Notes under the pieces: generated by a model
Database searches by the model: none
The model's input: only the letters and a program-made list of their open reading frames with translations
Told to the model about the DNA's origin: nothing
Translations under genes and position numbers: made by a program
Shown here: one piece after another, positions 34,977 through 64,000 of the stretch
Layout of the letters: every line of letters starts with the position of its first letter
Position numbering within the stretch: the stretch's first letter is position 1
Assembly: GCA_021513695.1 (NCBI GenBank)
Contig: CP084166.1
Span: forward strand, 448,001-512,000
Length of the DNA: 64,000 nucleotides
Source of the DNA: Candidatus Heimdallarchaeum aukensis
GTDB lineage: Archaea; Asgardarchaeota; Heimdallarchaeia; Heimdallarchaeales; Heimdallarchaeaceae
Reading direction: 5' to 3'

Positions 34977-34997
34977 AATTATTAAGAGGAGAATTTT

Positions 34998-47538: not shown

Positions 47539-47572
47539 TATGGAGATTAAAAAAAAAAAAAGGTGATAATAT

Positions 47573-48334
47573 ATGTTACAACTGAATTATGATATAAAAT
47601 TTAGAAAGGATTTCATTCATGGAATTCTTTATTTGCCGGATGAAGAGGGGCAGTTCCCTTTAGTTATAAGATTGAACGGTTTTCCGGGCAATTCTCCAGA
47701 AAAAGAAGAACAAAGATTAGCAGATATTATCACCCAGAATAATATGGCTTTTTATGCCTTTGACTATGTAGGAGTAAGAAAAAGTACAGGGACATTTAAT
47801 TATTATACGAGTTTGGAAAACATAAATACTGTTATAACAGATTTATCACATCATCCTCGAATTAATCCTGCAAAGATTGCTCTTCTTGGAGAAAGCTTCG
47901 GAGGAGCAATGGCAATAAGCCAAGGAGTAAGAGACCAAAGAATAAAATGTATTGTTTTAAGGTCTCCTGTATATGATACTGAAGTTATTCCTCAAATACC
48001 GTCTTTTAATACTTTAGTTAAAATATGGTCCAGAAACAATCAAATACGTTTCCCTAAAGGAGACATAAGTGAATTATACTACAAACAAACTAATCTTTAC
48101 AATCCTAAAAAAATAGCAAATTTAGTTAATTGCCCCGTAAAATTGATTGCAGGAGATAAAGATGAGTTGTTGGAAGTTAAGGGTTTTAGAGAACTTTACA
48201 AATGTTTACCACGGAAACTAAGAAAAGGAATTGATATCATTAAAGGAGCAGATCATAACTTTACTAAACAAAAACAGTTTATAGAATTAAAGAGTGAACT
48301 TTCCAGCTTTTTGACTTGTTGCCTTTTAGGGTAA
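47573..48334 (+). CDS. alpha/beta-hydrolase (putative thioesterase/acyl-hydrolase)
   Basis: GESFG nucleophile elbow (GxSxG), later acidic residue in IAGDKDEL and His in GADHNF. GGTGA SD-like element 8 nt upstream. Confidence 0.65.
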   Translation: MLQLNYDIKFRKDFIHGILYLPDEEGQFPLVIRLNGFPGNSPEKEEQRLADIITQNNMAFYAFDYVGVRKSTGTFNYYTSLENINTVITDLSHHPRINPAKIALLGESFGGAMAISQGVRDQRIKCIVLRSPVYDTEVIPQIPSFNTLVKIWSRNNQIRFPKGDISELYYKQTNLYNPKKIANLVNCPVKLIAGDKDELLEVKGFRELYKCLPRKLRKGIDIIKGADHNFTKQKQFIELKSELSSFLTCCLLG

Positions 48335-48346
48335 ATAACTTATGGA

Positions 48347-48838
48347 GTGCAAAAGATGAAGAAAAAAATAATCTACAACAATGAAGAATACATAATAGAA
48401 GCTAAAGGAGAAGACGAGATAGTAGTGAATAATAAGACTTTCAAAGTTAACTTAAAAGAGAAAAACAAGAATTTTTTCAATATAGAAATTCAAGGAAAGA
48501 AGTTTATTATAGAAGTAAGAGAAGGAGAATTCTATTTAGACGGAGAGAAAATAGAAAAATTATCAATTAGCCCCTATTTTCCACAATTAAAGAAACAAAA
48601 ACAAATGATTAACTCTCAAAAAGAAGTAGTAAAAGCACCTATACCAGGAACTATAACTCAAATACTAGTTAAAGAAGGAGATACAGTAAAAAAAGACCAA
48701 GAATTATTTATCCTTGAAGCGATGAAAATGAGAAATAGAATCTTAACAACCATTGACAAAGGTGTAGTAAAAAAAATCTACGTTAGCGAGAATGAAACTG
48801 TATCTCAAGATCAAAAACTAGCTATAATTGAAAATTAA
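48347..48838 (+). CDS. biotinyl-domain protein (biotin carboxyl carrier protein-like)
   Basis: C-terminal biotinyl domain with ILEAMKMRNRI (E-A-M-K-M biotinylation motif). N-terminal ~80 aa atypical (no Ala/Pro linker). Confidence 0.7.
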   Translation: MQKMKKKIIYNNEEYIIEAKGEDEIVVNNKTFKVNLKEKNKNFFNIEIQGKKFIIEVREGEFYLDGEKIEKLSISPYFPQLKKQKQMINSQKEVVKAPIPGTITQILVKEGDTVKKDQELFILEAMKMRNRILTTIDKGVVKKIYVSENETVSQDQKLAIIEN

Positions 48839-49073
48839 ATAAAAAAATAACAAAACAAATTTATTGCAAAAATAATTTAAAATTCGCACAAATATTTGGA
48901 TACTTCTTCTTTTTTAAATTCAAATTTTATCAAAAACTTGAAAAGAATGCTAAATAGTCTATTTTTTAAATAAATAGGAAACAAAAAAAGTTTAGACTAA
49001 GTGGTTAGTTTTTGAAGTATAAATGAGGAGAAATAGGAACTGTATAATTTAAAGAAGAATAAAAAAAATAGGA

Positions 49074-49661
49074 CTAATCAACCATAAGTTTGGGAAATTT
49101 TGAAAGTTCCATTAATTTCATGAATTTTTTTCCTTTCTTAAAAATAGTATCTATACATTCAATTATTATATCCAAAAGCTCTTCTACTTTTTCTTTTTTT
49201 ACAGGTTTTAGTCCATGAGCAAGTATTGATTCATTTCTCTCTTTTAAAAGGTCTTTCATTTTGTTGGATGAAGAAAACATTTTCCCAAGATCATCATTCA
49301 AATCGTCTAAAACTAGATAACAATCATATAATCCCAACTTTACTTTTGAACCATTACTTTTTCTTTCTTTGAAATAACTTATACGTTGAGAAGAAACTCC
49401 TAACTTTTCTAATTGCTCTAAGGATATGTCATGGGGAGGTAAATTGTAGGCACTCTTTAATCTATACTGTGCCATAAGTTCTACAGCTCTGTAGAGCCTA
49501 GCCATTGCATCATCAAACTTTTCTTCTTTTAATCGACGTTTTGCGTTATTTAATAAATCTGCAAGAAAATAAAGGTCTTTCTCTATTTTTTTATCACTTT
49601 TATGTAACAAGTCGCACAAAAATTCTTTATTAAAACTATATTCTTTGCCAAGCTGTTTCAT
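49074..49661 (-). pseudogene. 5'-truncated copy of csx1/csm6-like gene (HEPN half only), produced by the tandem duplication
   Basis: 195 aa identical to the C-terminal half of the 409-aa CARF-HEPN protein (51770..52999). The N-terminal CARF domain is replaced by the duplication junction at 49690/49691. Confidence 0.6.
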
Positions 49662-49679
49662 TTTATCAAAAGCTTCTTT

Positions 49680-50234
49680 ATGGTTAAATCTACTAAAATA
49701 TCCAACGAAAAAAGAAAAATGGAATATTTAGCGGGAGTAATCCTTGCTAAAGAACTTTTTTCCAAATATGAAAACATTACCGATTTCAGAAGTATAGAAA
49801 TAAAAAAGAAGAGTAAGGGGCAACCTTACTTTTTCAACAGACAACTAAAAGAAGAAACGGATTGGTATGTTTCTATTAGTCATTCAAATGATTTCGCTGT
49901 AGTCTCTATTGAGAAACAACCAGTAGGAATAGACATAGAAAAAGTAGAAGAAAGAAGTAAAAGTTTCTATGGCGAAGTTTTTTCAGATTATGAATTATCA
50001 AAAATTGCTGATGACCATACTTTAGGAACAAAATATTGGACTGCTAAAGAGTCATTAACTAAAGCATTAGGAGAAGGATTACATATTAAACTAAAAGAAA
50101 TTGAGTTTGGTTACAACGATGGCAAATTTGATCTAAAAAAATATCCTTCTTCTCTAAAACAAGATCAATTGCAGACTTCTATTGAATCTATTGAAGCAGC
50201 AGGTTATGTTGTTTCTAAATGTGTAATAAAATAA
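49680..50234 (+). pseudogene. chimeric ORF: junction-derived ATG fused to a duplicated PPTase-domain fragment of the megasynthase
   Basis: From residue 5 onward identical to the last ~180 aa of 39577..47538 (GIDIE and WxxKEAxxK PPTase motifs). The ATG at 49680-49682 comes from copy-A sequence antisense to csx1. Could encode a standalone PPTase if expressed. Confidence 0.5.
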
Positions 50235-50269
50235 TATGGAGATTAAAAATAAAAAAAAGGTGATAATAT

Positions 50270-51031
50270 ATGTTACAACTGAATTATGATATAAAATTTA
50301 GAAAGGATTTCATTCATGGAATTCTTTATTTGCCGGATGAAGAGGGGCAGTTCCCTTTAGTTATAAGATTGAACGGTTTTCCGGGCAATTCTCCAGAAAA
50401 AGAAGAACAAAGATTAGCAGATATTATCACCCAGAATAATATGGCTTTTTATGCCTTTGACTATGTAGGAGTAAGAAAAAGTACAGGGACATTTAATTAT
50501 TATACGAGTTTGGAAAACATAAATACTGTTATAACAGATTTATCACATCATCCTCGAATTAATCCTGCAAAGATTGCTCTTCTTGGAGAAAGCTTCGGAG
50601 GAGCAATGGCAATAAGCCAAGGAGTAAGAGACCAAAGAATAAAATGTATTGTTTTAAGGTCTCCTGTATATGATACTGAAGTTATTCCTCAAATACCGTC
50701 TTTTAATACTTTAGTTAAAATATGGTCCAGAAACAATCAAATACGTTTCCCTAAAGGAGACATAAGTGAATTATACTACAAACAAACTAATCTTTACAAT
50801 CCTAAAAAAATAGCAAATTTAGTTAATTGCCCCGTAAAATTGATTGCAGGAGATAAAGATGAGTTGTTGGAAGTTAAGGGTTTTAGAGAACTTTACAAAT
50901 GTTTACCACGGAAACTAAGAAAAGGAATTGATATCATTAAAGGAGCAGATCATAACTTTACTAAACAAAAACAGTTTATAGAATTAAAGAGTGAACTTTC
51001 CAGCTTTTTGACTTGTTGCCTTTTAGGGTAA
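50270..51031 (+). CDS. alpha/beta-hydrolase, duplicate copy (identical to 47573..48334)
   Basis: 100% identical 253-aa product. Confidence 0.65.
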   Translation: MLQLNYDIKFRKDFIHGILYLPDEEGQFPLVIRLNGFPGNSPEKEEQRLADIITQNNMAFYAFDYVGVRKSTGTFNYYTSLENINTVITDLSHHPRINPAKIALLGESFGGAMAISQGVRDQRIKCIVLRSPVYDTEVIPQIPSFNTLVKIWSRNNQIRFPKGDISELYYKQTNLYNPKKIANLVNCPVKLIAGDKDELLEVKGFRELYKCLPRKLRKGIDIIKGADHNFTKQKQFIELKSELSSFLTCCLLG

Positions 51032-51043
51032 ATAACTTATGGA

Positions 51044-51517
51044 GTGCAAAAGATGAAGAAAAAAATAATCTACAACAATGAAGAATACATAATAGAAGCT
51101 AAAGGAGAAGACGAGATAGTAGTGAATAATAAGACTTTCAAAGTTAACTTAAAAGAGAAAAACAAGAATTTTTTCAATATAGAAATTCAAGGAAAGAAGT
51201 TTATTATAGAAGTAAGAGAAGGAGAATTCTATTTAGACGGAGAGAAAATAGAAAAATTATCAATTAGCCCCTATTTTCCACAATTAAAGAAACAAAAACA
51301 AATGATTAACTCTCAAAAAGAAGTAGTAAAAGCACCTATACCAGGAACTATAACTCAAATACTAGTTAAAGAAGGAGATACAGTAAAAAAAGACCAAGAA
51401 TTATTTATCCTTGAAGCGATGAAAATGAGAAATAGAATCTTAACAACCATTGACAAAGGTGTAGTAAAAAAATCTACGTTAGCGAGAATGAAACTGTATC
51501 TCAAGATCAAAAACTAG
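51044..51517 (+). pseudogene. biotinyl-domain protein, duplicate copy with 1-nt homopolymer deletion changing the C-terminal ~20 aa
   Basis: Identical to 48347..48838 until …KGVVKK. An A7 vs A8 tract shifts the frame (…STLARMKLYLKIKN). The EAMKM site is retained. Confidence 0.5.
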
Positions 51518-51769
51518 CTATAATTGAAAATTAAATAAAAAAATAACAAAACAAATTTATTGCAAAAATAATTTAAAATTCGCACAAATATTTGGATACT
51601 TCTTCTTTTTTAAATTCAAATTTTATCAAAAACTTGAAAAGAATGCTAAATAGTCTATTTTTTAAATAAATAGGAAACAAAAAAAGTTTAGACTAAGTGG
51701 TTAGTTTTTGAAGTATAAATGAGGAGAAATAGGAACTGTATAATTTAAAGAAGAATAAAAAAAATAGGA

Positions 51770-52999
51770 CTAATCAACCATAAGTTTGGGAAATTTTGAA
51801 AGTTCCATTAATTTCATGAATTTTTTTCCTTTCTTAAAAATAGTATCTATACATTCAATTATTATATCCAAAAGCTCTTCTACTTTTTCTTTTTTTACAG
51901 GTTTTAGTCCATGAGCAAGTATTGATTCATTTCTCTCTTTTAAAAGGTCTTTCATTTTGTTGGATGAAGAAAACATTTTCCCAAGATCATCATTCAAATC
52001 GTCTAAAACTAGATAACAATCATATAATCCCAACTTTACTTTTGAACCATTACTTTTTCTTTCTTTGAAATAACTTATACGTTGAGAAGAAACTCCTAAC
52101 TTTTCTAATTGCTCTAAGGATATGTCATGGGGAGGTAAATTGTAGGCACTCTTTAATCTATACTGTGCCATAAGTTCTACAGCTCTGTAGAGCCTAGCCA
52201 TTGCATCATCAAACTTTTCTTCTTTTAATCGACGTTTTGCGTTATTTAATAAATCTGCAAGAAAATAAAGGTCTTTCTCTATTTTTTTATCACTTTTATG
52301 TAACAAGTCGCACAAAAATTCTTTATTAAAACTATATTCTTTGCCAAGCTGTTTCATTTTATCAAAAGCTTCTTTATGGTTAAATCTATCCCATAAACTA
52401 AAAGAATCAATTAAATTGTAATAGTATTCTTTTGTTTTGTCTCCGTTTAATAATACTATTTCATCTAAATAATTTCGTGCAGCATTATATCGATAATTAT
52501 TGAAAGATTCTTTCATTCTCCTTAACAATAATTTGTCATATACTGAATAAAGACTTTGCTCGACAATTCTTTCAGTACCTGAAAGAACAACACCATCTTT
52601 TCTTCTGCCTGAAATCAAAGTTAGTTTTTTGTGAAAAAGTACTGCAGCGATAGCTGCACTCATAGTCATTGTTTTTGTTCCAGAAGTATAGTCAATTATT
52701 ATTTCAGAATTGGAATACTTGTATATCTCATTCTGAATTAGTTGAAAACAACTATCAAAATCATCAATAGAAGTAAATTGAATAAATTCGTAAGAAGACA
52801 ATTCCTTGTTATACTGTGATTTATGTTGCCTTTCTATCTCCTTTATTGTTTTACGACTGTCTTCAGAACCAAAAAAAACAATATGATCAGGTTTATAGTG
52901 TTCAATACAAACTAGCAGTCCATGAGCTAAACTCTCAATTTTCTTGTCAACGTCCTCCCCTATTGCAGTTCCTACAGTCATAAAAAGAATACGTTTCAT
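51770..52999 (-). CDS. csx1: CRISPR ancillary CARF-HEPN protein (Csx1/Csm6 family)
   Basis: N-terminal Rossmann-like CARF (MKRILFMTVGTA…; DYTSGTKTMTM matches D-x-T-x-G-x-K/R). C-terminal RNESILAH matches the HEPN R-x4-6-H motif. Directly downstream of the cmr operon. Confidence 0.7.
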   Translation of the reverse strand: MKRILFMTVGTAIGEDVDKKIESLAHGLLVCIEHYKPDHIVFFGSEDSRKTIKEIERQHKSQYNKELSSYEFIQFTSIDDFDSCFQLIQNEIYKYSNSEIIIDYTSGTKTMTMSAAIAAVLFHKKLTLISGRRKDGVVLSGTERIVEQSLYSVYDKLLLRRMKESFNNYRYNAARNYLDEIVLLNGDKTKEYYYNLIDSFSLWDRFNHKEAFDKMKQLGKEYSFNKEFLCDLLHKSDKKIEKDLYFLADLLNNAKRRLKEEKFDDAMARLYRAVELMAQYRLKSAYNLPPHDISLEQLEKLGVSSQRISYFKERKSNGSKVKLGLYDCYLVLDDLNDDLGKMFSSSNKMKDLLKERNESILAHGLKPVKKEKVEELLDIIIECIDTIFKKGKKFMKLMELSKFPKLMVD

Positions 53000-53111
53000 G
53001 GTAAACCACTAACTAACTTTTAAAATAATTAAATCAAAATTTTTAAGCGTTACTAAAAACAAATATGTAAATAAAGCAATTACAAGGTAAAAATCCGTCA
53101 TCTTACTCAAC

Positions 53112-53933
53112 TTAAATTACTTTGAAACGGCCATAACCTAATGCAGTTTTTGCACCTAGTCCATGAATTTTCAATATGCCTGGCAGTAAGCTATTAATAA
53201 AATTCAAGTCTTCATCCATTTCAGTATAGTTTCTCTTTGGTAATAGCACAATTTGAAACTCTTGTTCAACATCAACAGCAAGAAACGGAATAGGAATAGG
53301 CTTCATCCAATCTCCTGGTGCTTCTTTTTCCAAATAATATTGTGAATAATGAGGAGTAATAATTTCTCCTTTTAATCTTGGAAATTTAGTTGGTAACATG
53401 TCTAAAAATATCATAGAACCAACTTCATTTGAGAGAGTTTTTTGATTTTCTTCTTTTGATAAAGAACCAAAAATTCTCTTTATTTGTTTTTTTTCGTTAT
53501 CGTCGTCCATTAGATCTATTATATAATCACGGATAGCACCTTTCAACGAGCTACCAGGTAGAAAAGGAACACCTAATGTATAGTGCCACAGAAAACCCAC
53601 TTCAATTGGATGTGGAAGACCAACACCTGTAATAAATGGAGTCAAAGTTCTAACATAAATAATTCTTCCATTTCGCTGTTCAGACAACAATAGTCTATGC
53701 TCAATGCATCTCTTAAGTAAAAAATTTTCATGTTTTACTTCATTATCAGTAAGTTTAGTAAAATGTTCAATCCATTTTTTCTTTCCCTCACTTATATATT
53801 CGATGTAATTATTTTTTTTCCACTTGTCAAAAAATTTTGAGTAGACTAAACCCTTGTTTGCACATTTATAGTTTTCATAGAAAAAGTTTTGTTCATTAAA
53901 CTTATGTCCTTTATAGATTACATTAGTCAGTTT
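53112..53933 (-). CDS. cmr6: type III-B RAMP Cmr6 (Cas7 group); ORF track start at 53690 (TTG), but the stop-free frame extends to 53933
   Basis: GLPHPIEVGFLWHYTLGVPFLPGSSLKGAIRDY (P-x-(I/L)PGSS-x-KG-x-x-R RAMP hallmark). The same frame stays open for 81 further codons upstream, up to the stop at 53934-53936, and encodes plausible protein (KLTNVIYKGHKFNEQNFFYENYKCANKGLVYSKFFDKWKKNNYIEYISEGKKKWIEHFTKLTDNEVKHENFLLKRCIEHRLL…), but contains no in-frame ATG/GTG/TTG. Confidence 0.55.
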   Translation of the reverse strand, partial: KLTNVIYKGHKFNEQNFFYENYKCANKGLVYSKFFDKWKKNNYIEYISEGKKKWIEHFTKLTDNEVKHENFLLKRCIEHRLLLSEQRNGRIIYVRTLTPFITGVGLPHPIEVGFLWHYTLGVPFLPGSSLKGAIRDYIIDLMDDDNEKKQIKRIFGSLSKEENQKTLSNEVGSMIFLDMLPTKFPRLKGEIITPHYSQYYLEKEAPGDWMKPIPIPFLAVDVEQEFQIVLLPKRNYTEMDEDLNFINSLLPGILKIHGLGAKTALGYGRFKVI

Positions 53934-54223
53934 TCATTCACCTCAACCTTGGCTTGAGCTAGTTTTTTTAGCCATCCAAGGAACTCTAAAGTTTCTATCT
54001 GTGCAAGAATATACTCATCTTGTGTTGCATTTGTAATGTTATAAATTAAATCATTAGAATCTGTAAAAATATTCACCTTTTTTAACCATGTTTCTATAAT
54101 ATCAACAATTTTTTTATGGGCCTTTTTATCGCCATTATCGGGTTTAGGAGTTGCACTTGCTAGTTCCATTGCAATGGCTTGTCCAAGACCATTCATTACA
54201 ATTGTAGCTGGTAAACTTTTCAC
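53927..54223 (-). CDS. cmr5: small alpha-helical subunit, Cmr5/Cas11-like (by position and size)
   Basis: 98-aa predicted all-helical protein between cmr4 and cmr6. No diagnostic motif. Confidence 0.4.
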   Translation of the reverse strand: MKSLPATIVMNGLGQAIAMELASATPKPDNGDKKAHKKIVDIIETWLKKVNIFTDSNDLIYNITNATQDEYILAQIETLEFLGWLKKLAQAKVEVNEN

Positions 54224-54327
54224 ATAACTTAAAAAGCTTGAATTGTTTATTTCGTCATCATCAATTACTTCATTTATTGATGCTAAAGCAAATTTAGCCC
54301 TATCGTTATCTGATAAAAACTCCAGAT

Positions 54328-55275
54328 TTATTCACCTCCTTTATCTGCATCAATTTTATCTATATGATGAATGATTTTTTCTGCATAATCCAGTTTTACA
54401 TGAAACCAACCTTGACCAACAGTTTCATTTCCTCCGATCTGGAGAAAACAACTATTAGTTAATAAATTGTCCAAAAAATCAATTCCATCTTCCTCAGAAA
54501 AAACTAAGCAATACATTAGAGTATCAGAGGAAATGTACTCTTCGTACCACAAATTTCTGCTTGACTTTGTCTCTGAATTTAATATATTCCTTGCTCGTAT
54601 TTCTAACCCAAAATTTGCGAACCATTTAAAATCATCATTATGAAGTATAACAAGCTGGTCTTTTAGTCTGTTCCTTACATCATCATCGGGTATCATAGCT
54701 GATAATAAATTAGCCAAATTGTCTATACCTTCACTTTCTTCTTTTTCAAATTGCCGTTCTTCAAGAAAAATATATTGTTCATTCACACAAGATAGAGTTT
54801 TTCCTCTTGTCACTTCGGGAATTGTAAATGAATATTTTATTCCTAAGCGTTTTAGGTCTCTTTTCAGTCTTTCTAATATATATGGACAAGTAATCCATCT
54901 ATAATTCGTCAATAAACTTCGTACTGGTAGCAATAGTAAGCGTGCATCAGAAATTAATAATTTTCCAGCAGAATCAGAACTTCCAAAGTACTTATCAACC
55001 TTTTTATTTGTTATATTAGAATTAACACCAACATTCTCATTAGCTAAACCACGCAGTGAGCCTTTTAAACTAGTGCTTGGTATGAAAGGATAACTTGTAA
55101 TTGTTTCACGAGCTACGGGACAATCTACTATTGATGTAGGATGTCCAGTTCCTGTATGAACAAATGTTTCAGCCAACATTTTCATTATTTTCCCTTTTAA
55201 ATTCGACTTCTTTTCATTTTGTTCCATATTAATCACCTCTTTCCCATTTTCCAAAAAGAAATTGTCCAAATCCAA
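54328..55275 (-). CDS. cmr4: type III-B RAMP Cmr4 (Cas7 backbone subunit)
   Basis: LAETFVHTGTGHPTSIVDCPVARE…YPFIPSTSLKGSLRG, classic Cmr4/Csm3 N-terminal signature. Confidence 0.75.
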   Translation of the reverse strand: MDLDNFFLENGKEVINMEQNEKKSNLKGKIMKMLAETFVHTGTGHPTSIVDCPVARETITSYPFIPSTSLKGSLRGLANENVGVNSNITNKKVDKYFGSSDSAGKLLISDARLLLLPVRSLLTNYRWITCPYILERLKRDLKRLGIKYSFTIPEVTRGKTLSCVNEQYIFLEERQFEKEESEGIDNLANLLSAMIPDDDVRNRLKDQLVILHNDDFKWFANFGLEIRARNILNSETKSSRNLWYEEYISSDTLMYCLVFSEEDGIDFLDNLLTNSCFLQIGGNETVGQGWFHVKLDYAEKIIHHIDKIDADKGGE

Positions 55276-56389
55276 ATTCAGTTAATTTACCTATTTTATT
55301 GGAAACCAATCTTTTTAATGAAGATGTATTTTTTTCATCAAAAAAGAATGTAGACCCTGGAGGAATAAAAGGTCTGACTTCTAGAGGTTCTTTTTTTACT
55401 GCATTCCATCCTCCAATGCGAAGAATATCACCAATGTTAGCACCTATAACCTCAGAACCAAACTTTTTTGACAAAAATGTCATAACTTCATCTAGAGAAT
55501 CTCCTAAATATGCAGGAGTAATAAATGTAATTGTAAAATTATCAGAAACTGTTGAAATAGGGGGTATTTTATCAATTACTGGGAATTCTATTTCCTTGTA
55601 ACTAATATTAGCTATCTTTCCTTCTCCACCTATACGGTTACACCAATTTTCAATTGAGTCAAGTAAATCAATACCATTGACTTTCATACAAAGTACAATA
55701 TTTTCTAACCTTATCATTTGACGCGAAAATAAATTTCCAGTAACTGCAGTATTGGTTGTAGGATCTATTTCAATACCAATCTCATTTTCTTTTTGCCATA
55801 ATTTATTCTCAGAGAGAAAACGAACATTTTTAAGACTTTCAGAAGAAAAGGACAATAATCTTTCTAGATCATCAAATTTAACATAATAATTTTGTAATGT
55901 TTTATAACCATAATTACCACTTCTTCTTGGAAGTAAAATACTCTTTCTATCATGTTTGTCTTTACTTATACTTGACAAATACTTTTGTTTAGAAGGAATT
56001 AAATAATCCAGATCTACAATCTCTTCGTTTTTTTGAGAGGAAATGTGTCCAATTATATGTAAAGGAACAGGAAATAAAGGATGAAATTGATTATCCTCTT
56101 TTAATAATAAGTAAGGACCAAAAAAGTCTAAAGGCCCAAGATCGGTACCATCACCCAATTTACTAATTATATTTTCATCCCATTTACTGCTTCCATCCCA
56201 TCCATAATATCGAGCTAGTAAGGATCTTATTAGTCCAGTAATTGAAAATGGAGATGGTGGAAAAACACTTTTAACAAAATCTGACGAACTATCACTTTTA
56301 TAGAAAGAATAGTTTCCTCTAAAAAACAACCTATCTAAAGGTTCAATTATGAAACACTGTTCCTTAGCCATTTTTATTACCAACCCCAT
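55229..56389 (-). CDS. cmr3: type III-B Cmr3 (Cas5 group)
   Basis: IIEPLDRLFFRGNYSF…SVFPPSPFSITGLIRS (PLDPLFFRD / FPPSPST-x-x-GALR Cmr3 hallmarks). Confidence 0.7.
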   Translation of the reverse strand: MGLVIKMAKEQCFIIEPLDRLFFRGNYSFYKSDSSSDFVKSVFPPSPFSITGLIRSLLARYYGWDGSSKWDENIISKLGDGTDLGPLDFFGPYLLLKEDNQFHPLFPVPLHIIGHISSQKNEEIVDLDYLIPSKQKYLSSISKDKHDRKSILLPRRSGNYGYKTLQNYYVKFDDLERLLSFSSESLKNVRFLSENKLWQKENEIGIEIDPTTNTAVTGNLFSRQMIRLENIVLCMKVNGIDLLDSIENWCNRIGGEGKIANISYKEIEFPVIDKIPPISTVSDNFTITFITPAYLGDSLDEVMTFLSKKFGSEVIGANIGDILRIGGWNAVKKEPLEVRPFIPPGSTFFFDEKNTSSLKRLVSNKIGKLTEFGFGQFLFGKWERGD

Positions 56390-58373
56390 GTTGATAAAGA
56401 AATTTTATAATATCAAGAAAACTTATAAAAAACTCATTTTCAGAGCTTTCAGGTATATACTCATTATTCTCATCTAATACTCTATATGACCGCTTCATTA
56501 GTTTAATCAATAAGCAAATAGTGGAATCTAATTTTTCGTTATTTAATTTTCTGTTTTCATGAGTAACAAATTCAGATTTTAATACTGTACTCAAATCTTT
56601 TCCAAAATCAGATATCTTTACAACATTTAGAGATTTACTTATTTCTTTATTTTCGTTTAATTTTCTAAAGACATTTCTAATTCTATACAATGCTCCTATC
56701 GAAAGATCGACATTAGAATCATAAAATAATTCAGAAATAAATTTCTCAAAATCATATCCATTTTTCTCAATAGAAGAAATAACGTCAAAAGTTGTTACAT
56801 ATTGATATTCTTTAGTTCCTCCTTTTAATAATGAAATTGCAATACTAGATCGACCATTATAATCTTTTGCAACTTCATCCAAAAGATAATGAGCTTTTTT
56901 CAAGACATCTTGTAAAGGATCATTAAAATGAGCGAAAACAATTCCTGCGGACATTGTTGCTTTTTTAGCATGCTTATCCATTTCTTCAACAAATCTATTA
57001 TTAATTGAAATTGCACATGAAATAACTTTATTTATTGGAACAAAAGCTAGAACATCGTCACCTCCAGCGTAAACAAGTACTCCATTATAATTTCTTACAA
57101 TTTCTTCTACTTCAATTGCAAATTTGGCAAGAATCTTACTAACTTTTTTTATAGCTTCTTTTTCTCCTTTTTCTTTCAATTTTTTGATAACATCACCTAT
57201 TTTATCACCATCCATTATCAGAACAGAGTAATAAGGTGATGGTATTATTTCACACTTATCGTAAATATTATCAACAAGATTTTTAGAAAGTTTTTTTCGA
57301 TATTCTTCGTATTCGGATGGAAACATAATTTTATTCTCATTTTTTAATAAGTCAGTATAATAAAGTTGAGCATCTAACTGAAAGAAAGGTTTGATTGCCT
57401 TTGCATCTTCTGATGCTCCTTCTTTATTGAAATTAAAATCAAACCATTGAGTAACATTAGGTCTTTTCAAATGTGATAAATCTTTGACTTTTTTAGCAAA
57501 ACTAATCAAAGATTTTCTCAATTCTAAATCTGTAGCAGCTTTTTCTTCTAACATGAACAACCAAGGTAAAGCTGCAATATAAACCGTTGAGGGCCAGTTT
57601 AGTATAGTTTTGCTTTTTAGAATTTCTTCTGAACATAAAGGAAACAATCGTTTTATTAATGCAATAGAAGAAAGCCTTTCATCATCTTTTAGTACGTATT
57701 TTAAAATATTTTTTCTAACTCGTTCCCAAAATGCATCTTGCTTATCTTTTTCACTTGTACTTTTTCCTCTGATAAAACCCGATAATTCTTGCCAATTTCC
57801 CATCATTTTACAACGATCACCCTTCTCAACAGGGAAAGAAAAAGGTGACCAAAGTTTAAAGTTAGAGAAATATTTTATTTCTTCTTCATTTTCTACTATT
57901 AACCATCGTATATTCCAAAAATTACTAGTTTGTCTAGCCCAAATCTTCTTTACTTCTGGATATTGTTTTTCTAGACTTGAAAAATATCTATCCCAAATCG
58001 TATCACAAATCCTCAACCATTCATTTCTAACAACAATTTCTGCTTTTTTAGCTAATTGAAAAGGATCTTTGCTTTTAGTTTTTATCACAGCTTGGTTTGG
58101 AATTGAACCTACTTTTGGGACTCCTTCAAGACCTTTGGTTTCATTCTTATCTGATTTTTCTTTTAAAGCATTTATAAAGGAATAAAATTCATTTCCATCT
58201 AGATTAGGCGATTCTATTGTTCCTCCAGAAATCATAAATTCATGCAATGCAACCCCAGTTAAGTAAGAAAGCAAATAAGAACCTACCCATAAATCTTGAG
58301 TCTTTCTAGCTTGTGCAATAAAAGACTGAACTGGGCCTATGGAAAAAATAATTGTAGTCTCATTAGTATCCAT
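56364..58373 (-). CDS. cas10: Cas10/Cmr2 large subunit, HD-domain-less, cyclase palm with intact GGDD
   Basis: 669 aa. N-terminal FSIGPVQSFIAQARKTQDLWVGSYLLSYL (Cmr2-type). VYAGGDDVLAFVP palm motif. No H-D nuclease motif at the N-terminus. Confidence 0.75.
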   Translation of the reverse strand: MDTNETTIIFSIGPVQSFIAQARKTQDLWVGSYLLSYLTGVALHEFMISGGTIESPNLDGNEFYSFINALKEKSDKNETKGLEGVPKVGSIPNQAVIKTKSKDPFQLAKKAEIVVRNEWLRICDTIWDRYFSSLEKQYPEVKKIWARQTSNFWNIRWLIVENEEEIKYFSNFKLWSPFSFPVEKGDRCKMMGNWQELSGFIRGKSTSEKDKQDAFWERVRKNILKYVLKDDERLSSIALIKRLFPLCSEEILKSKTILNWPSTVYIAALPWLFMLEEKAATDLELRKSLISFAKKVKDLSHLKRPNVTQWFDFNFNKEGASEDAKAIKPFFQLDAQLYYTDLLKNENKIMFPSEYEEYRKKLSKNLVDNIYDKCEIIPSPYYSVLIMDGDKIGDVIKKLKEKGEKEAIKKVSKILAKFAIEVEEIVRNYNGVLVYAGGDDVLAFVPINKVISCAISINNRFVEEMDKHAKKATMSAGIVFAHFNDPLQDVLKKAHYLLDEVAKDYNGRSSIAISLLKGGTKEYQYVTTFDVISSIEKNGYDFEKFISELFYDSNVDLSIGALYRIRNVFRKLNENKEISKSLNVVKISDFGKDLSTVLKSEFVTHENRKLNNEKLDSTICLLIKLMKRSYRVLDENNEYIPESSENEFFISFLDIIKFLYQHGVGNKNG

Positions 58374-59569
58374 TATATCTCCTCTTTACAATCAAATCTA
58401 TCAAAAAATGAATCTAAAAACGACCAATTTACTGCTAAAGGGACTTCTGTTGAATTTACTATTTTTTTTACTGTTCTATTACGAATTCTGTGTTGTTTTG
58501 TTGCTATAATTTTGAGTTTATTGTTCTGTAAAAATTTGGATTTTAATATCAAACCTATTGCAGCATAATGCTGTTGAACTTTAATGATTTTTATGAAAAG
58601 CGGGCTTGCTCTTCTAGTTGCACTATTTGAAAATGGTGATATCATTACACTTGTTTTATTGCTCTGAAAATAATAATTATGAGGTAAGCCAAAAATAATA
58701 CGTTCAGGATGCTCTTCAATTTTATTTTTATTAGTAAAATCAAGCATTAGATCATGATCTCTCTTAAAGTTTCTCTCAGCTCTTATTCCTCCTGGTAGTT
58801 CTCCACTATCCCCATAACTTCTATATTTTAATAACTCAAATCCAATAGAATTTAACAATTTATTAACATCACTGTCAATTTTTAATAAACAAGCCCTAGA
58901 ATACCTTGAAAAACGGGAATACAGTAAATCATTAATTTGTATCTGGTCTTCTTCTTTAAATTCAGCAAGAAAGTTCTCAATATTAATTTTTAAATCTTTT
59001 ACATTCTTTGATTGGATATATTCTAGCTCATCACCATTTTTTATCTCTTCAATATGAAATGATCCTAACCCTCGTCTAGATCTTGCGCCTATACCTCCAA
59101 AATAACTGAGAGCTATTAGAGCTTTAATAATAGAATTTTTAATGGATTTTTTACATTTTTTATTCAAATTTCTAAAGTAGATATTTATTTTTCCATTAAC
59201 AGGTGGTAAAACATATTCCTTAATATCATCTTTATGTTTTTTAATACCATATGTTAAATAACTTAATCCATATTCATTTTTTCCATATCCTTTAAAATGA
59301 CCCTTTTTGAAGTAATCTACCTCTGCATTTAATATCACCTTAGATTTACCAACGGACTTATCTGTGCTACTGAAAATCATAGTTTCATTACGATATAATT
59401 CATCTATAGTTTTTAGCTTAAAGTATTTCCAAGCTATCGCTCGCCACCAGAATCTTAAAGCCCCTTTAAAACTAGAAAGTCTAAATTCTGCTTTAGACTG
59501 ATCATAGCCGCGTAAAAATAGAGGAGTAACTATTTCAAACTTAACTGAAATATGTTCATACTCTTTCAC
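58373..59569 (-). CDS. cmr1: type III-B RAMP, Cmr1-like (first gene of operon)
   Basis: VTPLFLRGYDQSKAEFRLSSFKGALRFWWRA and Gly-rich loop YFGGIGARSRRGLGSF. A second RAMP-like half (…RRASPLFIKII…). 398 aa. Confidence 0.55.
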   Translation of the reverse strand: MKEYEHISVKFEIVTPLFLRGYDQSKAEFRLSSFKGALRFWWRAIAWKYFKLKTIDELYRNETMIFSSTDKSVGKSKVILNAEVDYFKKGHFKGYGKNEYGLSYLTYGIKKHKDDIKEYVLPPVNGKINIYFRNLNKKCKKSIKNSIIKALIALSYFGGIGARSRRGLGSFHIEEIKNGDELEYIQSKNVKDLKINIENFLAEFKEEDQIQINDLLYSRFSRYSRACLLKIDSDVNKLLNSIGFELLKYRSYGDSGELPGGIRAERNFKRDHDLMLDFTNKNKIEEHPERIIFGLPHNYYFQSNKTSVMISPFSNSATRRASPLFIKIIKVQQHYAAIGLILKSKFLQNNKLKIIATKQHRIRNRTVKKIVNSTEVPLAVNWSFLDSFFDRFDCKEEI

Positions 59570-59836: not shown

Positions 59837-60391
59837 ATGTGTGAGCTAGTATATGTAACATTAGCTGGTTCTTCTAAAAAAGCTATTGTAAACTCAATAT
59901 ATTTTACAGTAAAAGAATTTATTAAAAAAAATATTAAATCAGTTGAAAAATTGTCAATTTTGATAATAAAATCAAATACAAGTCCAATAAAAAAAGAGTC
60001 TATAAAAACTTCTATAACAGAATATTTTAGTCTATCAAAAGAATTATCGGATATCAAAATTGAATTTTTCGAAGAAAAAGTAGTTCCAGAGCATATGTTA
60101 ATAGATATTTTTAAAGAGATTCAAAATGAACTTGTTCCTTTTTTAGACAATAATCAAAATAAGCTAATTATTGTAGATTTGACCGCATCAAGAAAAATAA
60201 TGTCGATAGGTCTCACTCTAAGTATTATTGAGTATTGGAAAAAGAAAAAAAACAACAATGTTTTTGTGTCCTATTACTTACTTAAGAAATTTTACGACAA
60301 TAAAGAGAAAATAACTATAGAATTATTTCCTGATGAATTCTCCGTTGAAATATGGTCTATCAAAGATTTAGAGGTGATCTTTAGTGAATGA
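59837..60391 (+). CDS. small CARF-only protein (Crn1-like ring-nuclease / Csa3-like sensor candidate)
   Basis: N-terminal ELVYVTLAGSSKKAIVNSIY (Rossmann start as in CARF MxxLxxTLGTS) and IIVDLTASRKIMSIGL (D-x-T-x-x-R-K, CARF-like). 184 aa, no effector domain. Confidence 0.4.
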   Translation: MCELVYVTLAGSSKKAIVNSIYFTVKEFIKKNIKSVEKLSILIIKSNTSPIKKESIKTSITEYFSLSKELSDIKIEFFEEKVVPEHMLIDIFKEIQNELVPFLDNNQNKLIIVDLTASRKIMSIGLTLSIIEYWKKKKNNNVFVSYYLLKKFYDNKEKITIELFPDEFSVEIWSIKDLEVIFSE

Positions 60392-60980
60392 TAAAGAAAC
60401 AGAACTATATTTTGCTCAGTTTTTTGAAAAATTTCTAAAAAACAAAGAAATTATCATTAAAGGTTACAATGAAAGCAAAAATAGTGAATTTGAAATATCT
60501 TTCTCTGAACCGAAATTAATTTTCACTGGTGGTTTGCTCAATAGTACCATTCGAGATCTACTCTTTAATATAGCTATAGACAAAAATCAATTTGCTAAAA
60601 ACTATGAAGAACTAATTAGTGCAATTAATGAGGAATATATCATCGCAAAAAAGGATAATCGAATTCTAGCTTTGGGTATTGATACCAATATAATCTATTC
60701 AGGAGTTCTACTTACTGGATTATACAAACGTTTAATGAAAAAATTAGACTGGAAATTCCCTTTAATTGTAATCTCACATACCACTTCAGAAGAAATTCAC
60801 TATAAACGAGCTTCTAAATATAAAAATCCAACTTTAAATCAATTTAAAGCTAATATTCAGAAACAATCTGAAAATATTCAAAGTTTATTAAATAAAGTAT
60901 TTGCTGAAGAAGGAATGAATATTTCAGAAAGTGTTTATAGAAATCTACTTGATAGAGATGGTAGATTAGGCCATCTCTAG
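60384..60980 (+). CDS. hypothetical protein co-operonic (8-nt overlap) with the CARF-only gene
   Basis: 198-aa ORF, no motif recognised. Confidence 0.3.
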   Translation: MNDKETELYFAQFFEKFLKNKEIIIKGYNESKNSEFEISFSEPKLIFTGGLLNSTIRDLLFNIAIDKNQFAKNYEELISAINEEYIIAKKDNRILALGIDTNIIYSGVLLTGLYKRLMKKLDWKFPLIVISHTTSEEIHYKRASKYKNPTLNQFKANIQKQSENIQSLLNKVFAEEGMNISESVYRNLLDRDGRLGHL

Positions 60981-61200
60981 GAGTATACAAATTGCTCTTA
61001 CATCGCATTAAAATGAATACAATTGTAATAAAATCAATTCACCCTTATTACTCTGGAAAGTTTTCCAATAATGGAAATGTTCCTAGAGAAATTGGTGCAA
61101 TATATGATTCTTTAGTTTGCATTAATTCATAACTCTAGAAGAAGGATTTTTGAACAAGATTAAATTAAAAAAAAAAAAGGATATAGAGAAAGTTGAGTTG

Positions 61201-62718
61201 TTACCAAATGAAGTCTACTATTAAGTTTCCAAGTGTCCAAGTAGATGGTAAAATACCAACTGATGCCAGAGCACACCATGCATCATACGCAAATCCAATA
61301 CCATACACAGGTTCTAAAGCATCACCAATACCAGCATCAATAACATTTGCAACAATAGTTTTCATTTCACTTGTAGAAATAGTACCGTCGTCAACAAGAG
61401 CGATTGCAACAGAAATAACACCTGTAGCAAGCATAGATATACATGGTGAAAAATAACTCGTTTTAAGAGCGTTTTTTAGGATATTTCTTATTTCTTCTTC
61501 AGTTATAGTGTCAGTAGGGGATACCTTAAACAAGTTTCCAATTAATTCATAGGTAGCATCTTTTATGTGTGCACCTGTGCTCCCTATTATTTTATCAGTG
61601 AAGTCTCTTAATGCTTTTGCCATTTTTCCTGCGGTTTCTGTGGAATGAGAAAGATAATAACTATTACAGTATCCCTTAATGTCTTCAATGACTTTTAGAG
61701 TATTATCTACAAGTTGATAACTATTCAATGAAGCTTTGATATCAGAGGTATCTGATGTTCTATCGCTAGCGAATGCCATTATAAATTCCCTGATTTCTCC
61801 AGAACCATCACCCCAACTAAATACATCTTTTGCTAGTATTTTCCATTTAAGGGGTCTGTGGGCGTAAGAAGGATTGTTTACTGATATCGTGAATTCAAGA
61901 GTTTTTTCTCCAGGATCTGGATTGGAAGAGCTATGTCTGTCCCATAATTGTGCTATATACACATTTTCATTATTAACAGCATCGTAGTAACCCAAATACA
62001 CATCAAGTTGAGTCCAGTCTGAGTATGATATCCTTGTCTTTACATATATATAATCAACATATACATTATCTGGTACGTAATAGTTATATATTGAAGCATA
62101 AGCCATAAAGGGATCGTCTAATTCTACTTCATTGTGATAAGTACTATCGAAGTAATAAGCATCTCTTGATACTGCTACAGAACCTTCACCCCCCTCACCG
62201 CCATATGGACTGTTTGTTTCATACTGACTATTTCCGCCTATTCCAGTTGTAATCGCGATAGACCAATAATCGATATATCCTTTATCACCGCTAGCACAAT
62301 CTTCTACGCGTAATTTCCATGTACCATAACAGTTGAATCCTTTAAAATAACTTGTAATAACGAAATCCTGATGGATGTCATCTGAGCTACCACCTTCTCT
62401 GTCCCAAATTTGATAAGTTAACCCACTAGGACTGACAACCCATATTTTTAGGTCTCCAATCCATGTATGAATAATGCTCACGTAAACTGAAACAGTATCT
62501 ATAGAATCAGATTTTGAGATATATATATAGCTTTCTGTTGTAGAATGATCATAGATATTATAGTTTGATCCATTGGACCCCTGTGTACCTGCAGCACTTG
62601 TAGCGCTAGTTGGCATTATGAATGTATTTTGAGGAATCACTGTTACTATCATTAATGCTAATATAGACAGACTTATTAAGTAGATTTTTGATTTAGATTT
62701 TAATTTCATGTTATCCAT
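61201..62718 (-). CDS. secreted protein with proprotein-convertase P-domain-like module
   Basis: N-terminal signal/TM (LISLSILALMIVTVIP). TWIGDLKIWVVSPSGLTYQIWDREGGSSDDIHQDF matches the P-domain signature (GDL-x-I-x-L-x-SP-x-G-T…). Confidence 0.45.
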   Translation of the reverse strand: MDNMKLKSKSKIYLISLSILALMIVTVIPQNTFIMPTSATSAAGTQGSNGSNYNIYDHSTTESYIYISKSDSIDTVSVYVSIIHTWIGDLKIWVVSPSGLTYQIWDREGGSSDDIHQDFVITSYFKGFNCYGTWKLRVEDCASGDKGYIDYWSIAITTGIGGNSQYETNSPYGGEGGEGSVAVSRDAYYFDSTYHNEVELDDPFMAYASIYNYYVPDNVYVDYIYVKTRISYSDWTQLDVYLGYYDAVNNENVYIAQLWDRHSSSNPDPGEKTLEFTISVNNPSYAHRPLKWKILAKDVFSWGDGSGEIREFIMAFASDRTSDTSDIKASLNSYQLVDNTLKVIEDIKGYCNSYYLSHSTETAGKMAKALRDFTDKIIGSTGAHIKDATYELIGNLFKVSPTDTITEEEIRNILKNALKTSYFSPCISMLATGVISVAIALVDDGTISTSEMKTIVANVIDAGIGDALEPVYGIGFAYDAWCALASVGILPSTWTLGNLIVDFIW

Positions 62719-62970: not shown

Positions 62971-64000
62971 ATGTCTAATTCCCATCAATATAATGTTAGC
63001 TATTATGCTACACAGCGTGGAATAGCTGAAAGTACAGGTATTCCTCTGACAAATATCCCTAGAACCCTAAAAATGTTAATTAAAAAAGGATTTGTAGAAC
63101 AAAGTATGGGGTATACAAAAGATGCAATAAGAAGAAGAAAAGTGTATTTTCTCACAGAAATTGGAAAAAAAATGGCACAAAACCTTTACCATGAGCTATT
63201 AGAGCAAGAAATTACAATAATTAATAAACACGGTAAGAGTGAATTACATCCATTTAATGAAGTAGCGAAATTATATAATGTAGACGTTATAAAGATACTT
63301 AGAAATTTGGATTTGCAAGGAAATATTATGCTGGAAGAGCTTGTTCAAAATAACAATGAGGCTAATAAAGTTTATTTTCTTAATTATACACCAGAAGAGA
63401 ATTTTTTTTTCGGAAGAAAGGAAGAATTAGAAAAAATCAGAAGATTTATTGAACACGAACACAAAAAAGTTATAGCTGTATACGGTATTGCAGGTATAGG
63501 AAAGACCTCGTTGATATTAAAAATAATGCAGAATTATAGAAAGAATTACAATATTTTTTATTATAGATTACACGAGTGGGACAGCTTACGAAGTGTGTTA
63601 ACTTCATTATCTGACTTTTTAAGTAGGCTTGGAAAGAAAAGTTTGAGAAAATATTTGAATAATAACAGACCTTGCCTTGATGAAGTTCAAGCAATATTAA
63701 GAAAAGAATTAATGAACGTTAATTCTCTGTTGGTAATCGACGAAGTTCAAAACATTGCGAGCGATGAAATAGTTGATTTACTAAAATATCTTATAATAAT
63801 CTTTTGTGCTGAAATTGAGAATTCAATCCTTATTTTCGCCAGTAGAAAGAGGGTTAATTTCTACTCAATGAAACATACTCTAAAACGAAGCATCGGAGAA
63901 ATTGTTTTGAATGGGCTGGATAGGGAATCAAGTAATAAAATAATTGAGAAGAATATAAATATAAGAAACTTTGAGGAAATTTATAATATTACACAGGGAC
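62971..64000 (+). CDS. wHTH + AAA+ ATPase (archaeal ATPase / Arch_ATPase-like), 3'-partial at window end
   Basis: Not in the ORF track because no stop within the window. ATG at 62971. N-terminal wHTH-like (…RTLKMLIKKGFVEQSMGYTKDAIRRRKVYFLTEIG…). Walker A VYGIAGIGKTSL. Walker B LLVIDEVQ. Confidence 0.6.
   Translation, partial: MSNSHQYNVSYYATQRGIAESTGIPLTNIPRTLKMLIKKGFVEQSMGYTKDAIRRRKVYFLTEIGKKMAQNLYHELLEQEITIINKHGKSELHPFNEVAKLYNVDVIKILRNLDLQGNIMLEELVQNNNEANKVYFLNYTPEENFFFGRKEELEKIRRFIEHEHKKVIAVYGIAGIGKTSLILKIMQNYRKNYNIFYYRLHEWDSLRSVLTSLSDFLSRLGKKSLRKYLNNNRPCLDEVQAILRKELMNVNSLLVIDEVQNIASDEIVDLLKYLIIIFCAEIENSILIFASRKRVNFYSMKHTLKRSIGEIVLNGLDRESSNKIIEKNINIRNFEEIYNITQG

Follow-up and report, generated by a model that had tools for sequence, protein, structure and literature searches.

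The subject of this study is a block of CRISPR-associated genes in Candidatus Heimdallarchaeum aukensis, an Asgard archaeon with a circular genome of 3,081,793 bp. The stretch analysed, hereafter the window, comprises 64,000 nt of contig CP084166.1 (positions 448,001 to 512,000), and all coordinates below refer to it. Seven co-oriented genes lie on the minus strand at 51770-59569, as located by the listing of open reading frames (ORFs) and by NCBIfam, Pfam and PADLOC profile searches. The locus is a type III-B (Cmr) CRISPR effector module in which Cas10 and Cmr1, Cmr3, Cmr4, Cmr5 and Cmr6 are encoded together. The original prediction, made from the letters of the sequence, described a minus-strand operon in the order cmr1-cas10-cmr3-cmr4-cmr5-cmr6-csx1, and the Cas profiles recover all seven families at these positions. 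Each gene scores above the curated family cut-off in NCBIfam and/or Pfam, so there is no failure of the profiles to find the Cmr and Cas10 families, and PADLOC places each cmr gene of the contiguous set in its own Cmr family.

The first gene, cmr1 (58373-59569; 398 amino acids (aa), GTG start), encodes a RAMP/Cas7-like subunit (TIGR01894, 1.4e-19; PADLOC Cmr1, 1.7e-27; named Cmr1 in GenBank, UJG41238.1). It is followed by cas10/cmr2 (56364-58373; 669 aa; UJG41237.1), which has no HD domain and carries Cmr2_N and Palm2 domains (PF12469, PF22335); its match to TIGR02577 (4.1e-58) scores 197.5 bits against a cut-off of 79.4. The Cas5-like subunit is encoded by cmr3 (55229-56389; PF09700 (Cas_Cmr3), 4.9e-56; TIGR01888, 7.6e-33; UJG41236.1), with 386 aa here and 380 aa from the GenBank start. 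The Cas7 backbone subunit and target-RNA nuclease is encoded by cmr4 (54328-55227; 299 aa; TIGR02580, 2.4e-52), for which ATG 55227 is the most likely start. Next come the small subunit gene cmr5 (53927-54325; 132 aa; TIGR01881, 5.3e-09; Pfam Cas_Cmr5, 3e-23) and cmr6 (53112-53930; 272 aa; TIGR01898, 6.8e-39), both with CTG starts. The last gene, at 51770-52999, encodes a 409-aa ancillary RNase of CARF-6H-HEPN architecture (csm6, in the Csx1/Csm6 superfamily; TIGR02710, 1.1e-62). With corrected starts the junctions measure -1, -26, +1, +2, -4 and +112 nt, which makes for a compact operon. Cmr4 aligns to Cmr4 of Pyrococcus furiosus (PDB 4W8W, 1.7e-36), and its D35 matches the Asp of the GVVDQP motif. 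We take the D35-equivalent Asp of 'VVDQP' to be catalytic for target-RNA cleavage. GenBank names the genes as type III-B Cmr1, Cas10, Cmr3, Cmr4, Cmr5 and Cmr6 plus a 'TIGR02710 family CRISPR-associated protein'. The locus has been annotated and published before and is an ordinary representative of a large, known class.

The starts of cmr5 and cmr6 required closer attention. The ORF list leaves a 105-nt gap before cmr5 and a 237-nt gap before cmr6, and both frames stay open back to the preceding gene. In each case a CTG follows a strong Shine-Dalgarno sequence: in cmr5, the CTG at 54325 lies 6 nt after GGAGGTGA (context GGAGGTGA-ATAAAT-CTG); in cmr6, the CTG at 53930 lies 7 nt after GAGGTGA (context GAGGTGA-ATGAAAA-CTG) and overlaps the cmr5 stop as CTGA. 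With cmr5 extended to its CTG, the Pfam Cas_Cmr5 score climbs from 82.7 to 106.2 bits and model positions 3-118 of 119 are covered. For the extended Cmr6, the alignment with PADLOC Cmr6 models begins at residue 45, ahead of residue 81, where the nominal TTG lies. Both CTG contexts are identical in a relative about 94% identical to the window (L002-L005). Of the ten codons that differ from L002 in the cmr5 extension, nine are synonymous changes, and where cmr5 has its nominal GTG start L002 reads GTA. GenBank Cmr5 (UJG42175.1) is exactly the CTG-started 132-aa product. GenBank Cmr6 (UJG41234.1), at 191 aa, is about 81 N-terminal residues too short, and a related record from a metagenome-assembled genome (MAG), RLG10349.1, has Cmr6 annotated from the same CTG codon (271 aa). 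On these sequence grounds CTG appears to be the only plausible start for both genes. An alternative genetic code, or frameshifted pseudogenes, as the source of the gaps was set aside in favour of the CTG starts, given their Shine-Dalgarno spacing, the profile coverage and the synonymous evolution.

Cas10 and the CARF-HEPN protein

The original prediction held that Cas10 lacks the N-terminal HD nuclease motif and retains GGDD, and both parts stand. Cas10 has no HD match in Pfam and no 'HD' dipeptide anywhere in the protein; it begins directly with the Cmr2_N motif, and its alignment to the HD-bearing Cmr2 chain 9L7C starts at residue 249 of that chain. A hidden HD domain reached through an upstream start was considered and excluded: the reading frame is closed by a TAA five codons upstream of the Cas10 ATG, in the region occupied by cmr1, and an N-terminal HD extension is therefore impossible. 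The cyclase motifs are MDGD at 387-390 and GGDD at 437-440, and within a 22-sequence family alignment D388, G389 and D390 as well as G437, G438, D439 and D440 are invariant. The loss of the zinc-finger cysteines (RLSSIALIKR) was considered as an oddity and dismissed, as many family members have Ser there.

A homology search with Cas10 returned more than 1800 proteins at E <= 1e-5. The best 120 all have the Cmr2_N and Palm2 regions and, with a single exception, lengths of about 590-720 aa; both bacteria and archaea are represented in the list, for example by Methanothrix, Caldanaerobacter, Rubrobacter and Desulfofarcimen. In a survey of 1113 type III loci, HD was present in only 39% (about 61% without) and the cyclase domain in 92% (PMC11229360). 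The homologue architecture and the survey together lead us to regard the HD-less, cyclase-positive state as the norm for a large known Cmr2 clade.

The protein encoded by the last gene matches PF09670 ('Csm6 HEPN', 4.9e-37) and PF22205 (Csm6_6H, 2.8e-10), and the PADLOC CARF1 profiles match it over its full length (CARF1--CARF_HEPN, 1.1e-118). Its best PDB matches are to Thermus thermophilus Csm6 (8JH1/5FSH). The CARF motif DYTSGTK, starting at D103, aligns to DLTSGTK of that protein, and the HEPN motif R356-NESILA-H363 (Rx6H) aligns to RNSALLVH. By Pfam, NCBIfam and nearest structure, the gene is assigned to the TIGR02710/Csm6 type. The earlier label 'Csx1 CARF-HEPN' is correct in its CARF-HEPN part, and the name Csx1 is acceptable only in the broad sense of CRISPRCasTyper and PADLOC or of Hoikkala et al. 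2024, who place cyclic tetra-adenylate (cA4)-dependent TtCsm6-like proteins under Csx1. Given the relationship to TtCsm6 and the prevalence of cA4, which is the commonest type III signal (PMC11229360), cA4 would be the most likely activator by analogy.

CRISPR RNA supply and mode of action

We read the locus as a stand-alone type III-B interference cassette that would use CRISPR RNAs (crRNAs) supplied in trans and would signal through cyclic oligoadenylate (cOA) to its CARF-HEPN RNase; we give this reading a probability of roughly 0.78. The Cmr complex would be loaded with crRNAs made from arrays elsewhere in the genome and processed by the Cas6 of a different CRISPR locus. When the complex bound a complementary foreign transcript, RNA cutting by Cmr4 and cOA synthesis by Cas10 would both be triggered, the signal most likely being cA4, judging from the relationship to T. 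thermophilus Csm6. The cOA would bind the CARF domain and switch on the HEPN RNase, and the ensuing non-specific RNA degradation would lead to dormancy or abortive infection. HD-mediated cleavage of single-stranded DNA would play no part. The original prediction had likewise implied cOA signalling to the CARF-HEPN RNase rather than HD-mediated cleavage, and this agrees with all the sequence-level tests.

Several points weigh against this reading. No CRISPR array was detected in the 64-kb window by Tandem Repeats Finder, a direct-repeat search or Rfam, and a focused search found none in the flanks, in contig L001 of the Logan assembly, which extends 2.5 kb past the window, or in the contigs of relatives. 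None of the 23 other ORFs of the window matches any PADLOC model, Cas1, Cas2, Cas4 and Cas6 included, just as the original prediction had found no array, cas6, cas1 or cas2 in the window. With no array or cas6 found in these 64 kb, the adjoining 2.5 kb and the relatives' contigs, the supply of crRNA to the complex is an assumption. The genome paper reports seven CRISPR-Cas systems in two Heimdallarchaeum genomes, namely five complete operons, a single orphan array and one operon that has no array (C7), and its text states neither the type of C7 nor its host genome (PMC8813620). The cOA species, like all the enzymatic activities, is read across from homologous proteins. Lastly, a neighbouring PIN-domain gene is decaying, a sign that the surrounding island is not uniformly maintained.

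The array-free operon C7 is probably the present locus, and arrays and Cas6 elsewhere in the genome are a plausible source of crRNA. Sharing of crRNA processing in trans by array-less type III modules is documented (PMC11229360), and because such modules are a known state the locus stays in subtype III-B.

The missing array and cas6 could instead mean that the cassette is an orphaned, non-functional relic, no longer programmable and decaying like the frameshifted and truncated PIN gene beside it. The two genes without canonical start codons, the involvement of the locus in a duplication and the absence of the cassette from the sister species H. endolithica would fit such a history. We consider it unlikely. 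All seven ORFs are intact and keep their catalytic motifs, and there is good documentation of type III modules that lack an array and draw on crRNAs in trans (PMC11229360). Shine-Dalgarno spacing is perfect at the CTG starts, which are kept in relatives, with the extension evolving synonymously. Further, the ratio of nonsynonymous to synonymous substitution (dN/dS) between the window and the diverged relative L002 is 0.09-0.40 for the six cmr genes, which indicates continuing purifying selection.

A relic is not the sole alternative to cOA signalling from an active complex. Cas10 might make a different signal, such as the S-adenosylmethionine-AMP conjugate (SAM-AMP) of the Bacteroides fragilis III-B system, or might act in RNA cleavage alone, with the CARF-HEPN protein regulated in some other way. 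Product specificity is not readable from GGDD alone, and a SAM-AMP-producing clade is among the HD-less III-B Cas10s (PMC10600005). However, the effectors linked to this operon are CARF proteins, which are known cOA receptors, the closest solved CARF-HEPN protein binds cA4, and profile searches show no CorA, NrN or SAM-lyase genes nearby. We therefore hold a non-cOA output to be very improbable, and retain cOA signalling to the Csm6-type RNase as the preferred reading.

Divergence from the JGI relative L002 is uneven along the operon. Synonymous divergence (dS) is 0.04 for cmr3 and 0.16-0.38 for cas10, cmr1 and cmr5, and csm6 differs at only 3 of 1230 nt (99.8% identical). This mosaic suggests recombination within the operon. 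The operon recurs in four independent JGI metagenome contigs, where Cas10 is 89% identical and where an intact csm6 and the gene for biotin carboxyl carrier protein (BCCP) come after it.

The variable island, its second CARF gene and the duplications

In H. endolithica (L010, CP084167.1) the syntenic order is polyketide synthase (PKS), hydrolase, BCCP, biotin carboxylase and two TldD/PmbA genes, and the syntenic region has no cas genes. Nucleotide homology between H. endolithica and the window (blastn) ends at 51571, or at 48875 in the other copy of a duplication described below. Since the sister region lacks cas genes and homology stops there, the Cmr cassette belongs to a variable island, whose left edge we place at 51572-51769, where H. 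endolithica ceases to match, some 200 bp past the csm6 stop. Its right edge is beyond the available sequence. The synteny thus puts the cassette in a strain-variable island between the BCCP and biotin carboxylase genes of an acyl-CoA carboxylase/PKS cluster. A 501-aa gene after BCCP in H. endolithica was considered as a homologue of the P-domain protein mentioned below and rejected; it is the biotin carboxylase. This locus shows defence cassettes in Heimdallarchaeum to be inserted within a conserved cluster of metabolic genes and to vary from one sister species to the other.

The window part of that cluster (33402-48838) encodes an acyl-CoA carboxylase beta subunit, a PKS-like synthase of about 3515 aa with a C-terminal phosphopantetheinyl transferase, an alpha/beta hydrolase and BCCP. 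Homologues of the hydrolase occur in 41 Asgard loci (L010-L050; Heimdall, Hodar, Thor and Loki lineages). The PKS/hydrolase/BCCP cluster could merit attention in connection with bacterial-type synthesis of lipids or polyketides in Asgard archaea.

On the other side of the operon is a second cOA-related module, which the original prediction had missed. A gene for a stand-alone CARF-domain protein of 184 aa (59837-60391, plus strand) diverges from cmr1. It overlaps a PIN-domain gene with its own Shine-Dalgarno sequence and GTG start, which is decayed (60384-61130, plus strand): a 198-aa ORF at 60384-60980 is followed by a frameshifted remnant, as seen by comparison with relatives P0135 and L002. 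Both genes are annotated as hypothetical in the public record. Alone, the 184-aa protein gives weak CARF matches in PADLOC. A word-indexed homologue search returned only near-identical fragments, and a small family of about 140-200 aa came from an exhaustive search of representative sequences. Its conserved motif is DITxGRKxMS, fitting the D-x-T-x-G-x-K pattern of CARF domains, with D114, R119 and K120 invariant, and a Ser or Thr stands two residues after G11 in most, not all, members. All 11 members match PADLOC CARF models, nine of them CARF_m1--CARF_PIN (best 5e-13). An AlphaFold2 model built from the 11-sequence alignment (pLDDT 91.4) replaced a single-sequence model (pLDDT 53.7) that gave uninformative fold matches, and its top PDB matches in Foldseek are all CARF proteins: Sso2081 Crn1 (3.4e-07, TM about 0.55), then Card1, Sis0455, TtCsm6, Cam1 and Cad1. 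From the modelled fold, the protein would be a ring nuclease of the Crn1 kind or else the sensor that partners the downstream PIN gene.

The intact PIN relative, P0135, has 359 aa, and its PIN part matches PADLOC CARF_m1--CARF_PIN at 4.2e-04. The window gene has a stop/frameshift at about 60978, after which the remnant frame stops soon; RGIDAIYD has become REIGAIYD, a D-to-G change; and the C-terminus is lost, homology to L002 ending at 61130. Compared with P0135, the window copy does not hold a complete PIN fold with the conserved acidic residues, and on this comparison we class the gene as a pseudogene in the H. aukensis genome. Because the remnant matches an intact 359-aa relative, the locus probably once carried a split CARF and PIN effector. 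The divergent CARF protein would then either degrade cA4 in the manner of Crn1 or have been the sensor of the now pseudogenised nuclease, and from its model the surviving gene was possibly retained as a ring nuclease.

Joining these elements, we offer a more specific scenario only as a tentative conjecture. The cassette might be a mobile, interference-only Cmr module, wholly dependent on host crRNAs and Cas6, that originally had two cA4-responsive arms, the Csm6-type RNase and an uncharacterised two-gene split CARF_m1 and PIN effector; the CARF protein would have been kept as a ring nuclease after loss of the PIN partner, and cmr5 and cmr6 would be expressed by CTG-initiated translational coupling, a start usage undocumented for Asgard archaea.

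Further along the island, between the PIN remnant and a STAND NTPase gene, lies the gene (61201-62718, minus strand) for a secreted or membrane protein of 505 aa that has a proprotein-convertase P-domain; it adjoins the CARF/PIN pair in related Heimdallarchaeaceae MAGs too. The STAND/AAA NTPase, of 856 aa with TPR repeats, and a small nucleotidyltransferase-like ORF occupy 62971-64000 and beyond (L001 969-3539) and likewise belong to the variable island. PADLOC matches are only weak for the STAND-TPR protein and the neighbouring ORFs outside the window (TPR, 1e-09; PDC-S27, 2.6e-07). Elsewhere, a 380-aa DNA methyltransferase with a DPPF motif (5574-6716, minus strand; PADLOC Type II MTase, 7.5e-174, assigned to the ORF by the motif) is the window's only strong PADLOC match, and only defence-type match, apart from the cassette island.

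The left edge of the island falls within a tandem duplication. The repeated unit is 2696-2698 bp long, its copies span 46995-49692 and 49691-52388, and they share 2 nt (TA) of microhomology at the junction. The unit holds the 3' end of the PKS gene, the hydrolase gene, BCCP and the 3' half of csm6. Its right end, 52388, lies inside csm6 codon 204, and copy 2 completes the intact gene. Copy 1 leaves a truncated second CARF-HEPN gene (49074-49692, minus strand; UJG41229.1) that has only codons 205-409, is identical to the 3' half of 51770-52999 and encodes a HEPN-only ORF of 195 aa (PF09670, 1.1e-37). The suggestion that a 2.7-kb duplication truncates a csx1 copy fits this layout. The accompanying suggestion, that the island boundary lies exactly where the rearrangement happened, is inexact: the boundary (about 51571) is inside the duplicated unit and the endpoint (52388) is within csm6, so that the unit straddles the island edge, with 1881 bp of core and 817 bp of island, and the two do not coincide.

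A second, perfect tandem duplication of 1993 bp (37393-39385 = 39386-41378, by sequence identity) lies in the PKS gene, which resembles polyunsaturated fatty acid synthase genes. As its length is not a multiple of 3, it splits the gene into ORFs of 1506 aa and 2653 aa; GenBank has the second piece as UJG42174.1, 2711 aa, from an upstream start. In the Illumina-based Logan assembly (SRR15988954), contig L051 runs across the region with only one copy and an unbroken ORF of at least 3344 aa, and the H. endolithica PKS is a single 3515-aa gene (UJG44031.1). Because of this, and because the published genome was scaffolded by LRScaf with Nanopore reads from DNA amplified by multiple displacement amplification (MDA), the 1993-bp duplication is very probably a scaffolding artefact.

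The 2.7-kb duplication might have arisen in the same way, as an assembly or scaffolding product and not a biological truncation of a csx1 copy. The assembly history is shared (metaSPAdes, then LRScaf with Nanopore reads from MDA-amplified DNA; PMC8813620), the nearby 1993-bp duplication is missing from an independent Illumina contig and almost certainly artefactual, and H. endolithica and the JGI and ENA relatives have a single copy of the unit. The two copies differ only by two poly-A indels, of a kind typical of long-read consensus errors: at 47553/50250 (A13 vs A5TA8) and 48770-48775/51466-51472 (A8 vs A7). Against this, the separate Logan contig L009 (2699 nt) corresponds exactly to the unit, its ends matching the duplication boundaries to the base, and the flanking contigs L001 and L051 each end 30 nt (k-1) inside the unit. 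Both boundaries are therefore graph branch points, the branching expected if the reads contain a unit-to-unit junction and not seen in the 1993-bp case. The independent Illumina assembly supports the 2.7-kb duplication as a real repeat junction in the reads, and we consider an artefact doubtful, at perhaps one chance in four. Each copy deviates once from L009, and the second indel causes a frameshift in one BCCP copy (51044-51517; 157 aa vs 163 aa). Consensus errors are the likely origin of both poly-A differences, the BCCP frameshift included.

Two further ORFs, at 13536-16505 (plus strand, 989 aa) and 25796-30244 (minus strand, 1482 aa), harbour long tandem repeats within the gene, whose periods are 144, 147 and 288 nt; one of these arrays is 99% identical between units. 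They are probably the 'intragenic tandem repeats' of the genome paper (PMC8813620).

The value of the analysis lies mainly in curation, with annotation and assembly corrections to a reference Asgard genome. These concern the Cmr6 start, the annotation of the CARF and PIN genes, the very probable 1993-bp artefact in the PKS gene and the likely homopolymer errors in the 2.7-kb copies.

Comparison with known systems

The CARF-HEPN protein shares both its CARF-6H-HEPN architecture and its two motifs (D-x-T-S-G-T-K in CARF, R-N-x5-H-G in HEPN) with T. thermophilus Csm6 (TTHB152; PDB 5FSH, 8JH1), although pairwise similarity is weak (E 1.5e-05). The Thermus protein has cA4 as its ligand and a self-limiting ring-nuclease activity, properties that could be extended to the Heimdallarchaeum protein by analogy at most. 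The 184-aa protein resembles the Crn1 ring nucleases Sso2081 and Sis0455, which are stand-alone CARF proteins, in size and fold. The PADLOC CARF_m1--CARF_PIN model describes a single fusion, whereas the CARF and PIN genes here are separate and overlap.

The Cmr system of P. furiosus (PDB 3X1L, 4W8Y, 4W8W) has the same gene set and type of gene order, and the Palm2 region of its Cas10 aligns with that of H. aukensis. It differs in that P. furiosus Cmr2 has an N-terminal HD domain of about 215 residues, which is missing from the Heimdallarchaeum protein. Among the matches listed, the nearest Cas10 homologue from outside Heimdall is only 36% identical and lies in an operon with a Card1 effector.

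The closest counterpart in design is the HD-less III-B clade represented by VmeCmr of Vibrio metoecus (PMC8682760) and by PDB 9ARW, with a 612-aa Cas10/Cmr2. VmeCmr has an array of its own, unlike the present locus, where none was found, and the target of its signal is NucC instead of a CARF-HEPN protein. In other respects the likeness is close: both have the Cmr1-6 set, and in both Cas10, at about 600-680 aa in the clade, starts with Cmr2_N, has no HD domain and keeps GGDD. For that clade, as for the cassette described here, defence is presumed to act through a nucleotide second messenger.

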